From an uncultured Gammaproteobacteria bacterium (GTDB taxonomy: Bacteria; Patescibacteriota; Patescibacteriia; SG8-24): a DNA stretch of 64,000 bases. The stretch covers positions 136,766 through 200,765 of the forward strand of contig CAZBFO010000003.1 in assembly GCA_964491475.1 (NCBI GenBank), in the 5' to 3' direction. A program made the translations under genes and the position numbers. Below the pieces are notes generated by a model. That model was not told the origin of the DNA. It saw only the letters and a program-made list of their open reading frames with translations, and made no database searches. This document shows positions 10,029 to 10,736 of the stretch, piece after piece. Position 1 is the first letter of the stretch. Each line of letters starts with the position of its first letter.

Positions 10029-10072
10029 GGCTTTATAAAGCCAAAAAGTGCTCAAAATGCTGCGGGCCACCC

Positions 10073-10101
10073 TTGACAGCGAGGCCTTTTCGTGCTAGAG
10101 T
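10073..10101 (+). promoter_or_regulatory. near-consensus sigma70 promoter (-35 TTGACA, 17-nt spacer, -10 TAGAGT) driving the structured RNA
   Basis: ttgaca at 10073..10078, 17-nt spacer gcgaggccttttcgtgc, tagagt at 10096..10101. It is preceded by the perfect 14-nt palindrome ggctttataaagcc at 10029..10042. Confidence 0.6.
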
Positions 10102-10107
10102 CTTCAG

Positions 10108-10736
10108 TTCCCTTAAAACAGACCACCACCCGTTCTCGCGTAGCGAGATGGACTGGATCCCCTTATTGGCTCGCTTCGGCATGTCCGATAAGGGCGGTTA
10201 CTATGTCGGTTCTCGCCGGTTTCGACTGGCAGGCGCCTTCGGAAAAACCATCGCCTCTGGCTCGGCTTCGGCTGATACCCACTGGTTCCGTTCCATCTCG
10301 TTGCGCAAGAACCGGTCAGCAAAATGGAGGGGGATACCCTTATTGGCCTGCTTCGGCTCGTCCGATAAGGGCGACATGGACTTCGGTACGGCCGGTTTCG
10401 ACTGGCAGGCACCCTCTGAAATGTCACTGCCTTCGGGTCGGCTTCGGCTGATACCCTCGGGTTCCATCTCCAGTTTGCTGTCCGGTTCCCCGTCGCAGCA
10501 CAAAACTCGCGGCATCAGATTCGATTCGCGACAGGACGAGTGAAGATCGTTCGATACGGAGCTCGCGTGAGCCGCACGGTGCGTACACCCCACCCCTCCC
10601 CGCCGCACCGGGCGTCACTTAAGCGCTAGGATCCGTATCCGAACGTTCTCCTTCTTCTGTCGGTACCCTAACAGGGTCGATCGTCTCGCTGATGCCTACA
10701 ACCCTGTCCCGTTCGGGATGGGGTTGTTTCTTTTCG
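10108..10736 (+). ncRNA. unclassified structured RNA of about 600 nt with internal tandem duplication. It is not tRNA, tmRNA, RNase P, SRP or 6S by the motifs I can check.
   Basis: Bounded by its own promoter at 10073..10101 and a terminator hairpin with T-run at 10700..10736. It is rich in cUUCGg hairpins, and no frame conserves coding across the repeats. Ends are approximate. Confidence 0.4.
10155..10470 (+). repeat. tandem direct repeat, 2 units with 177-nt period (unit A 10155..10299, unit B 10332..10470), about 80% identical
   Basis: ggatccccttattggctcgcttcggcatgtccgataagggcgg...ccggtttcgactggcaggc...ggcttcggctgataccc...ggttccatctc recurs as ggatacccttattggcctgcttcggctcgtccgataagggcga...ccggtttcgactggcaggc...ggcttcggctgataccc...gttccatctc. 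Confidence 0.75.

Follow-up and report, generated by a model that had tools for sequence, protein, structure and literature searches.

Several large bacterial RNAs, among them OLE, raiA, GOLLD and ROOL, are multi-helix transcripts with their own promoter and terminator and a narrow phylogenetic range; their sequences do not reveal what they do, and they are likely to work as ribonucleoproteins. Other systems place structured RNA ahead of a protein gene. In glycine riboswitches, tandem aptamers are served by one expression platform; ToxIN-type loci consist of a promoter, direct RNA repeats, an intrinsic terminator and a small protein gene; and 6S RNA (ssrS) is a stable regulatory RNA co-transcribed with ygfA, a protein gene that the RNA does not need. 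Autoregulated RNA-binding proteins, such as ribosomal proteins and ThrRS, are translated from mRNAs that mimic their main RNA target. The Patescibacteria constitute a large share of bacterial diversity and have tiny genomes, and to our knowledge almost no ncRNAs beyond the universal ones have been described in them.

The locus described here lies in a window of 64,000 nt, i.e. the whole stretch of DNA that was analysed. It resembles OLE, raiA, GOLLD and ROOL in specifying a multi-helix RNA of several hundred nucleotides that is backed by covariation, has its own promoter and terminator and is narrowly distributed. It differs from them in lacking any sequence or structure match by Rfam, in consisting of repeats of a four-way-junction module of 175 nt, in its restriction to Patescibacteria and in being usually fused 5' to the mRNA of a small acidic protein. 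With tandem glycine riboswitches it shares two homologous domains upstream of one terminator, which in turn precedes a gene, and the existence of single-domain relatives; however, its junction is four-way rather than three-way, its P1 is long and stable, the last P1 does not overlap the terminator, the gene downstream has no connection with glycine catabolism, and the riboswitch model gives no match at E ≤ 10. The order of elements in the window is that of ToxIN, CptIN and TenpIN loci, although the repeat is about five times longer and usually present in one copy, the acidic protein has no nuclease signature and the locus is not mobile. The 6S/ygfA pair offers a model for a trans-acting RNA that looks like the 5' UTR of the following protein gene, but 6S RNA is a rod with a central bubble, whereas this RNA forms four-way junctions and has no Rfam 6S match.

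On the + strand, a promoter and a terminator, the ends being predicted from consensus sequences, enclose a putative ncRNA of about 630 nt (Table 1); a promoter and a terminator of its own on the same strand are what is expected of an independent sRNA gene. The sequence-only reading of this DNA had proposed both signals. The near-consensus promoter matches at 10 of 12 positions and has an extended -10 TG; the arrangement TTGACA-17-TAGAGT is not by itself above chance, with 0.7 such sites expected, and the call is backed by its being kept base for base in relatives and found at every homologous locus. The hairpin and T-run terminator is likewise confirmed, with compensatory changes in the relatives L092 and L093, where it is kept. 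A GUUC-N-UUAAA motif in the RNA leader (10107-10118) recurs in both high-GC and low-GC homologues. The upstream gene is frr, as identified by a Pfam RRF match, and its terminator shields the RNA from frr transcription. A palindrome had also been reported upstream of the -35 element; it exists, but is a perfect 24 nt long instead of 14, and it is not kept in the closest relatives compared (L092, L093 and L003). AT-rich motifs of the TAAGC/GCTTA type precede the homologous promoters as well as an unrelated promoter at 7157 on the - strand, and the palindrome probably belongs to a general AT-rich region upstream of promoters.

Table 1. Positions of the features between frr and glyS, numbered from the first nucleotide of the window.
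Feature	Position	Strand	Details
frr terminator	9993-10018	+	11-bp stem and U-run
Palindrome	10024-10047		TTTTTGGCTTTATAAAGCCAAAAA; perfect, 24 nt, in AT-rich stretch upstream of promoter
Promoter of the RNA, sigma-70-type	10073-10101	+	TTGACA (10073-10078)-17-TAGAGT (10096-10101); TG at 10093-10094
5' leader of the RNA and inferred 5' end	10106-10134	+	Start placed from the position of the -10 element
Unit 1, four-way junction P1-P4	10135-10308	+	CM R1 173.5 bits; P3 tip GCCGGUUUCGACUGGC at 10215-10230
Unit 2, four-way junction	10311-10485	+	CM R1 172.4 bits; P3 tip at 10391-10406
3' domain, long irregular hairpin	10511-10696	+	z = -4.65
Intrinsic terminator of the RNA	10698-10739	+	13-bp stem (10698-10727), loop UUCG, then U-run
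orf144 leader	10740-10883	+	Invariant UGUAAGA; hairpin GUUCGCCGUAAGGCGAAC at 10822-10839; SD GAAGGAGC at 10871-10878
orf144	10884-11318	+	Small acidic protein, pI 4.35
orf144 terminator	11328-11365	+	GCCUUCCCC-loop-GGGGAAGGUC, then UUUUUAUUU
glyS promoter	11403-11442	+	TTGTCC-17-TATTTT with extended TG (11403-11431); ATG at 11440

Within the transcript, direct repeats of 75 nt (83% identity) and 42 nt (88%), spaced 176-177 nt apart, belong to tandem whole units that are 73-82% identical. The 177-nt tandem duplication had been recognised from the sequence and described as two copies of an element of about 145 nt; the evolutionary unit is about 175 nt. Each of these modules forms a four-way junction on its own, with a long P1 as the closing stem and with the P2 hairpin, the long P3 arm and the P4 hairpin as the other arms. 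P1 is stable, at about 19 bp, and has an invariant top, AUGGAGG / CC-N-UCUCCA (the G-rich strand in unit 2 is AUGGAGGGGGAU, at 10324-10335), and the P3 arm ends in an invariant hairpin; hence the invariant positions sit in helices, at the top of P1 and the tip of P3, not in the junctions. A search for pseudoknots or tertiary pairs among the unpaired columns yielded nothing beyond a longer P1 and a single weak candidate pair (columns 119/146). The abundance of CTTCGG noted earlier is real but was undercounted: the + strand has seven copies between 10174 and 10447, not five, where approximately 0.25 would be expected from the density across the window. Unit 1 is orthologous to unit 1 of L003 (90% identity); unit 2 is orthologous to unit 2 of L003 (81%) and closest to the single units of L042-type loci (75%).

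The structure is strongly supported because of its compensatory mutations. In the alignment of 21 distinct units, with 58 consensus pairs, 93.0% of cells are paired, against 36-50% in controls with slid partners, and both sides have changed in 34 of these pairs, against 11-15 in the controls. The covariation score of 0.446 compares with about 0.09, and the observed values were reached by none of 500 shuffles, such an excess of compensatory substitutions over controls being the standard for a conserved structured RNA. The module model is home-made, seven of the 21 aligned units having gone into building it, and its E-values are rough. As for orientation, the fold has z = -7.3 on the + strand and -3.2 on the - strand, and conserved G-U pairs (in 19/21, 21/21 and 15/21 sequences) would become A-C mismatches on the opposite strand, which argues for the + strand as the one that encodes the RNA. 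The earlier proposal of a promoter-driven, terminator-bounded structured RNA with a tandem duplication and no known-family match is supported, and from these sequence comparisons there is strong support for the region being a real, previously undescribed structured ncRNA of candidate-phyla-radiation bacteria.

The module defines a new RNA family limited to an Uhrbacteria-like subgroup of the Patescibacteria, with about 24 loci in genomes and metagenomes of this phylum, most of which carry a single unit rather than the two of the window. Rfam 15 (4227 models), applied to the whole window at gathering thresholds, detected only four tRNAs at 20.4-22.1 kb; at E ≤ 10 over 9900-10950, the best match was IRE_I, with 18.3 bits against a threshold of 34, and in 13 related loci the search again gave tRNAs only. 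The RNA region is thus without a match to any known family, as the sequence-only reading had judged by eye. ARAGORN on 9900-10900 identified no tRNA or tmRNA, and the corresponding Rfam models had no match in the region; GGUUUCGACUGG resembles GGAUUCGAC, which we take to be a tmRNA 5' motif. Phage, plasmid and viral collections contained no match to the RNA, a literature search found no description of it, and it is not mentioned in the Minerva preprint. The RNA is chromosomal and syntenic, with a single locus per window or genome and no transposase, and in the high-GC clade it is positioned between frr and glyS at every locus.

In the low-GC clade (L029, L073, L071 and L087) the setting differs: the RNA has its own promoter, the next gene has an apparently separate one, and the RNA stands alone as a gene, with three other proteins (A, B and C) encoded next to it and glyS nowhere near. 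Between L029 and L073 the RNA is 93% identical over 455 nt, whereas the flanking proteins are 41-50% identical. A 142-nt mini-version of the module, comprising the P1 top and a CCGG...CUGG hairpin, is found in the leader of the 530-aa gene B. Such a reduced module in the leader of a neighbouring gene is reminiscent of the operators of ribosomal proteins and ThrRS, and by analogy weakly suggests autoregulatory mimicry; unlike in those systems, the neighbouring proteins have no known domains, and the mini-module is not seen in the clade of the window. Proteins A and C are basic (pI 9.3 and 10.0), and protein B has no phage match. The A/C/B set also includes a small basic protein with an ArfA-like KxKxxYxRKxKHG tail.

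Downstream of the units, the 3' domain, which is specific to the clade, has an apical loop of approximately 20 nt (10584-10603) that is C-rich and includes CCCCUCC at 10593-10599. It is kept in L092 and L093, with some compensatory changes and a CCCCUCCCC-type loop, and no similarity to it was detected in other loci; the 3' extensions present in L060 and L067 were considered as homologues and rejected, there being no sequence similarity and the folds being dissimilar. The GGAGGRGG strand of the unit is complementary to CCCCUCC-type stretches further downstream, in the window loop, in the L060 terminator and, as CUUCCUC, in L003. An anti-terminator or SD-mimic switch built on such pairing was nevertheless rejected: duplex energies in 17 loci did not differ significantly from those of shuffles (p = 0.05-0.95), and as it does not rise above shuffles, this complementarity has been dropped as evidence.

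The terminator is followed by orf144, the product of which belongs to a tiny, lineage-specific and fast-evolving family; this downstream gene for an acidic protein was absent from the sequence-only reading. The protein has no match in Pfam, PADLOC, PHROG or NCBIfam, and its AF2 model (pLDDT 74.7) has no fold match, including to PDB entries at E ≤ 0.001 and to ToxN-like structures. Its leader has a homologue in L042/L085-type loci, where it follows the lone unit directly, and the consensus fold of the leader leaves the SD free of pairing. A member of the family lies just downstream of the RNA in 14 of 20 high-GC loci, and a unit was found upstream of the orf144 homologue in 16 of 16 cases examined. 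About 400 nt, including the terminator, separate unit and orf144 in window-type loci, and unit 1 of the window has no ORF of its own. The RNA occurs without orf144 in six high-GC loci, where the unit is followed by a terminator or by an unrelated ORF: L003 and L008 (two units each), L089, L067 and L060 have intact units with all invariant bases and a terminator, and L006 has an unrelated ORF in place of orf144.

Explanations other than a non-coding RNA with a function of its own have to account for both the conserved fold and this arrangement of genes. The lowest probability is given to a decayed or unrecognised protein gene, or a DNA-level repeat left behind by a mobile element. It is true, in conflict with the earlier statement that the region held no credible ORF, that ORFs of 174 aa and 119 aa are present on the + strand, that a gene caller placed a 131-aa gene there (L001 3716-4111) and that at least one stop-free sense frame exists in every unit. 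None of the ORFs in the RNA region has a Pfam match, however; the frames are not conserved, the frame that is read differs between units 1 and 2, and no 3-base (codon) periodicity of variability is observed across units. The frame-shifting indels described earlier are borne out by unit lengths of 172-177 nt, non-multiples of three, and the compensatory differences by the P1 stems of the two units, which differ in sequence and yet both pair. Covariation across the homologues, with changes on both sides of so many pairs, is of the RNA type and not that of a decayed gene, while a DNA repeat is contradicted by the single locus, the fixed synteny, the lack of a transposase and the conservation of promoter and terminator across relatives. 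Scarcely more credible is a role for the RNA as the leader of glyS, T-box-like or otherwise sensing tRNA or glycine. The frr-[RNA]-glyS order in all high-GC loci would suit such a role, as would the terminator followed by glyS within about 100-150 nt in L003, L008 and L089. Yet glyS has a conserved promoter of its own immediately before its ATG, from the position of which its mRNA would be nearly leaderless; the same promoter sequence precedes glyS in L003, and a hairpin in its spacer was flagged as terminator-like in the terminator scan. glyS is therefore not driven through the RNA, and this reading was rejected. In addition, the window has an ORF and its terminator between RNA and glyS, the low-GC RNAs are far from glyS, and neither the T-box nor the glycine riboswitch model has a match at E ≤ 10.

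A type III-like toxin-antitoxin or addiction module, in which the RNA would neutralise orf144 and the terminator would set the ratio of RNA to protein, is improbable, if less so than a glyS leader. The promoter, direct RNA repeats, intrinsic terminator and small ORF of the window follow the type III order, and the occasional loss of a fast-evolving protein while the RNA stays is like that seen with orphan antitoxins. Against this, the units are present in one or two copies of 172-177 nt, not in arrays of 34-45 nt; at most loci there is one unit and the terminator is missing; orf144 is acidic, with neither a match in PADLOC, Pfam or NCBIfam nor a ToxN-like fold in the PDB; and the locus is a single-copy chromosomal one with fixed synteny and is not found in phages or plasmids. 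The main rival has the orf144 family controlled in cis by the unit, as a 5' UTR element that is either an aptamer of the riboswitch type or a leader bound by a protein; in the window, the tandem aptamers, 3' hairpin and terminator would then form an attenuator gating read-through into orf144. This is a serious possibility, though less probable than the reading preferred below. Eleven loci have one unit that precedes an orf144 homologue by 41-137 nt in the same orientation, the interval containing an SD but no terminator; further orf144 loci that were looked up had units in four of four cases; two complete promoter-unit-ORF cassettes occur at each of two loci (L043+L021 and L095); no promoter belonging to orf144 itself is recognisable in the window sequence; and tandem aptamers with one expression platform have a precedent in glycine riboswitches. 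On the other side, intact units persist without orf144 in the six high-GC loci and the whole low-GC clade, the stable P1 is unlike switching P1 stems, the conserved bases lie in helices and not in junctions, and the G-rich strand is no more complementary to the sequence downstream than expected from shuffles. No conserved competing structure joins the unit to the terminator or to the SD, which is unpaired, and in the window a 186-nt hairpin stands between unit 2 and the terminator.

The explanation we prefer, at a probability of about 0.5, is a stable modular RNA that serves as a scaffold for protein and from which transcription reads through into orf144. The RNA would be abundant and trans-acting, its expression, ends and stability being predicted from the promoter and terminator consensus. 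A conserved partner, most probably a protein, would dock at the invariant helices in a sequence-specific manner, and each module would offer one binding platform, such that the tandem duplication would provide two. In the window orf144 would be expressed by read-through of the terminator, and in relatives by direct co-transcription; its product may be a clade-specific accessory or partner, rather than the cause of the RNA's existence. A stand-alone function is argued for by the persistence of units without orf144 in high-GC lineages and in the low-GC clade, and the scaffold reading by the invariant bases in helices, the mini-module ahead of gene B and the basic proteins A and C, although the protein-binding role itself is only weakly suggested by these features. 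The very tight linkage between unit and orf144 counts against this explanation, and because of it a cis-acting 5' UTR fits at least as naturally. Also counting against a scaffold, the candidate partners are not found in the clade of the window, searches with tblastn and HMMs having detected no homologues of A, B or C in the window or the high-GC loci. orf144 itself is an unlikely RNA binder, being acidic, and alternative pairings or RNA-RNA contacts could explain the invariant helices equally well. A more tentative reading is that the module is the RNA subunit of a new CPR-specific RNP, or an RNA sensor, with lineage-specific partners (the orf144 family in the high-GC clade; A/C/B in the low-GC clade); it might then act in ribosome rescue or translation control, or in a process of that kind, or constitute a new class of riboswitch with a signal of its own.

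The near-consensus promoter, the retention of the RNA in reduced genomes and its conservation above that of the neighbouring proteins indicate that it is likely to be important for the bacteria that carry it. The family provides a well-delimited target of 175 nt with defined invariant helices for structure determination, pull-downs and the mapping of metatranscriptomes, and a covariance model would keep gene callers from placing spurious ORFs across the RNA. Its pairing with the RNA also gives a handle on an otherwise uncharacterised, fast-evolving family of acidic proteins.

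The interval from 9990 to 10890 in the window is flanked by frr and a 144-aa ORF (orf144), with glyS next after the ORF. The near-consensus promoter, the hairpin and T-run terminator and the tandem duplication described in the sequence-only reading are all present, the last as direct repeats of 75 nt (83% identity) and 42 nt (88%) at a spacing of 176-177 nt, the first copy being enclosed by a 33-nt inverted repeat. The perfect palindrome upstream of the -35 is real and spans 24 nt rather than 14 nt, and the proposed enrichment in CTTCGG is upheld with a count of seven rather than five (10174-10447, forward strand, against approximately 0.25 expected from the density in the window). 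Folding of 10105-10736 gives -274 kcal/mol (z = -7.3) on the forward strand, against z = -3.2 on the reverse strand. Each repeat alone folds into a multi-branched domain with a long closing stem; this stem has a different sequence in each copy, yet it pairs in both.

Coordinates of features in the window and in related loci (L-numbers)
Sequence	Feature	Coordinates
Window	Promoter divergent from holB, TTGACA-17-TATAGT with TG	7129-7157 (-)
Window	frr (Pfam RRF)	9433-9990
Window	Terminator of frr	9993-10018
Window	Palindrome	10024-10047
Window	Sigma-70-type promoter, TTGACA-17-TAGAGT, extended -10 TG	10073-10101
Window	RNA unit 1	10135-10308
Window	RNA unit 2	10311-10485
Window	RNA terminator, 13-bp hairpin and U-run	10698-10727
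Window	orf144	10884-11318 (+)
Window	Terminator of orf144	11328-11365
Window	glyS promoter, TTGTCC-17-TATTTT, extended TG, through the ATG	11403-11442
Window	glyS	11440-12780
Window	1378-aa protein	12840-16976 (-)
Window	Four-tRNA cluster	20427-22122
Window	Weak partial match to unit model	32478-32601
L029	Protein C	3654-3839
L087	Protein C	3870-4055
L073	Protein C	
L029	142-nt reduced module	3996-4137
L073	142-nt reduced module	5327-5468
L071	142-nt reduced module	2206-2348
L088	Match to three-part DNA pattern	6728-6863

A known RNA family is ruled out by Rfam 15, which identified only four tRNAs in the whole window, all outside this region, where nothing approaches a gathering score even at E <= 10. 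The same negative was obtained for thirteen related loci, ARAGORN found no tRNA or tmRNA in the region, and no family, entry or paper describing this RNA was found in the literature and databases. The named relatives of the frr protein are from Parcubacteria and Patescibacteria. On the contigs carrying its closest homologues, holB is followed by the BNR-repeat protein, frr, a gap of 650-870 nt and glyS; the promoter recurs in this gap, with the element present once or twice. ATGGAGGRGGA, GCCGGTTTCGACTGG and CCRTCTC are invariant in this initial set of copies. A pattern based on these invariants matched 71 stretches in species-representative genomes, mostly by chance in GC-rich genomes, and none in viral contigs; a stricter pattern matched 11 stretches in metagenomes. 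With a home-made covariance model built on seven units, for which E-values are rough, true members score 110-183 bits and all else at most 23 bits, except antisense echoes of true members. Approximately 20 distinct high-GC loci were collected by a pattern requiring the invariant hairpin, which misses more divergent members. Four low-GC members (L029, L071, L073 and L087; 35-47 bits) come from genomes of approximately 45% GC, including a Candidatus Uhrbacteria MAG. The weak match elsewhere in the window (15.8 bits, E = 0.17) lies in GC-rich coding sequence and is most likely noise, and the match in the metagenome contig L088 is not recovered by the model at E <= 0.001.

The unit consensus is a four-way junction. 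P1 comprises approximately 19 bp, variable in its lower part and invariant at the top (AUGGAG/CUCCA plus GGA/UCC); of the other arms, P2 and P4 are hairpins, P2 of 10 bp, and P3 is long, is interrupted by purine-rich internal loops and ends in the invariant tip GCCGGUUUCGACUGGC. Across 21 distinct units, 93.0% of cells form a standard pair (36-50% when partners are slid by 1-3 columns), 34 of 58 pairs have changed on both sides (11-15 in the control) and the covariation score is 0.446 (approximately 0.09), with none of 500 shuffles reaching any observed measure. The differences that had looked compensatory by eye are borne out. Several conserved G-U pairs (in 19, 21 and 15 of the 21 units) imply that the forward strand is the transcribed one. 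A decayed gene is effectively excluded: pairs are kept by two-sided changes, variability is equal across codon phases (0.23, 0.25 and 0.25), ORFs drawn across the region have no Pfam match, and, in line with the earlier argument from indels, unit lengths range from 172 to 177 nt and unit 1 of the window would need another reading frame than unit 2.

The promoter TTGACA-17-TAnnnT, mostly with TG, is common to all loci, as is the 5' leader motif GUUC-N-UUAAA; what follows varies considerably. At 11 high-GC loci there is one unit, and 41-137 nt beyond it, with no intervening terminator, come a Shine-Dalgarno sequence and an orf144 homologue. Two full promoter-unit-ORF cassettes stand one after the other at each of two loci, JAHFIV (seen as L043 and L021) and L095. 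In L092, L093 and the window, two units are followed by a long hairpin whose apical loop is of the CCCCUCCCC type; a terminator comes next, and then a conserved leader and the ORF. Five loci have units and a terminator without orf144: two units in L003 and L008, one in L089, and one with unrelated 3' extensions in L060 and L067. In L006 an unrelated 90-aa ORF takes the place of orf144. Units 1 and 2 of L003 are 90% and 81% identical to those of the window, whose unit 2 groups with single units of the L042 type, and each of the two ORF-less units of L008 is 82% identical to one of the JAHFIV cassette units. One and the same locus can therefore exist in either state, with units or with whole cassettes in tandem.

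A unit lies upstream of every orf144 homologue whose DNA was retrieved. This protein family is small (12 proteins among 5.8 billion clusters; 23 representatives among 1.84 billion), acidic (pI 4.2-5.4) and fast-evolving (19-41% identity between subgroups). orf144 has no match in Pfam, PADLOC, PHROGs or NCBIfam, and its AlphaFold model, an alpha/beta fold (pLDDT 74.7), has no significant match in PDB or BFVD.

In the low-GC clade the RNA, with its own promoter and two units, the second diverged, sits between protein A (basic, 250 aa) and the conserved protein C (basic, pI 10, 61 aa), which appears to have its own promoter. Beyond C lie the reduced module and protein B (approximately 530 aa, acidic tail). 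This module, in the leader of gene B behind its own promoter, consists of the P1 top and a CCGG...CUGG hairpin without P2, and scores 17-29 bits against the unit model on either strand. Between L029 and L073 the RNA is 93% identical over 455 nt, whereas A is only 50% and B only 41% identical. None of the three proteins has a known domain, and neither the window nor the high-GC loci yielded a homologue of any of them; C has only a weak DUF7230 match in Pfam and no sequence match in PDB. The C-terminal end of C, KDKSKYSRKQKHG, resembles that of E. coli ArfA, KGKGSYMRKGKHG, with identity at 8 of 13 positions.

glyS seems to be transcribed from its own promoter, which ends 8 nt before the ATG and would give a nearly leaderless mRNA; L003 has the same promoter sequence, and the gene caller's start at 11410 falls within it. 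A role for the RNA as a glyS leader is effectively excluded by this promoter and the intervening orf144 terminator, and glyS is independent of the RNA. The window GlyRS is 85% identical to those of L008 and L021 and only 57% to that of L003, in conflict with frr, holB and the BNR protein, which make L003 the closer relative (75-83% vs 50-62%); this suggests that a second allele type may have replaced glyS or a glyS-proximal segment through recombination or transfer. Directly after glyS, where relatives have a peptidase M16 gene, lies a 1378-aa protein without a match in Pfam, PHROG or NCBIfam, the sole hint being a very weak PADLOC oligonucleotide-cyclase match (residues 1152-1188, E = 0.009). 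L044 and L067 have a tRNA cluster resembling the four-gene cluster of the window within a few kb of the RNA locus, implying that synteny extends to the wider neighbourhood. An AT-rich stretch with TTAGGCTAATTTAAGCTTATTTT precedes the second near-consensus promoter of the window, divergent from holB, is similar to motifs upstream of the relatives' RNA promoters, and may be an UP-like element or regulator site shared by strong promoters of this lineage.

The element is a conserved, strand-specific, structured RNA module restricted to one bacterial group, with a predicted promoter and, in the window, a predicted terminator; it is strictly paired with orf144 wherever this exists and persists where it is absent. 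The favoured reading, held at a little under even odds (about 0.45), is that the RNA would be stable and act in trans, its invariant helices serving to dock a conserved partner. This is argued for by the intact module in six high-GC lineages and the whole low-GC clade without orf144, by its far greater conservation than that of its neighbours, and by conserved bases that, like those of protein-binding sites, sit within helices. The reduced module in the gene B leader looks like autoregulatory mimicry.

The main rival, a cis-acting leader or attenuator for orf144, is supported by the tight linkage of unit and gene and is held to be less likely. Against it stand the length and stability of P1, the lack of any conserved alternative fold involving the terminator or Shine-Dalgarno sequence, and the hairpin of 186 nt that lies between unit 2 and the terminator. 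The cis-acting and trans-acting readings are not mutually exclusive; 6S RNA, which acts in trans, shares a transcript with the downstream gene ygfA. The gene order of the window fits a type III toxin-antitoxin-like locus, but repeat size, the number of copies and the kind of protein do not.

Broadly, the RNA is one of the orphan structured RNAs of bacteria, and no description of such a modular, cassette-like architecture was found. A public gene call, L001 3716-4111 (window approximately 10148-10543), places a 131-aa 'protein' across both units; this is likely to be a mis-annotation, of a type that would be avoided with a covariance model of this RNA.
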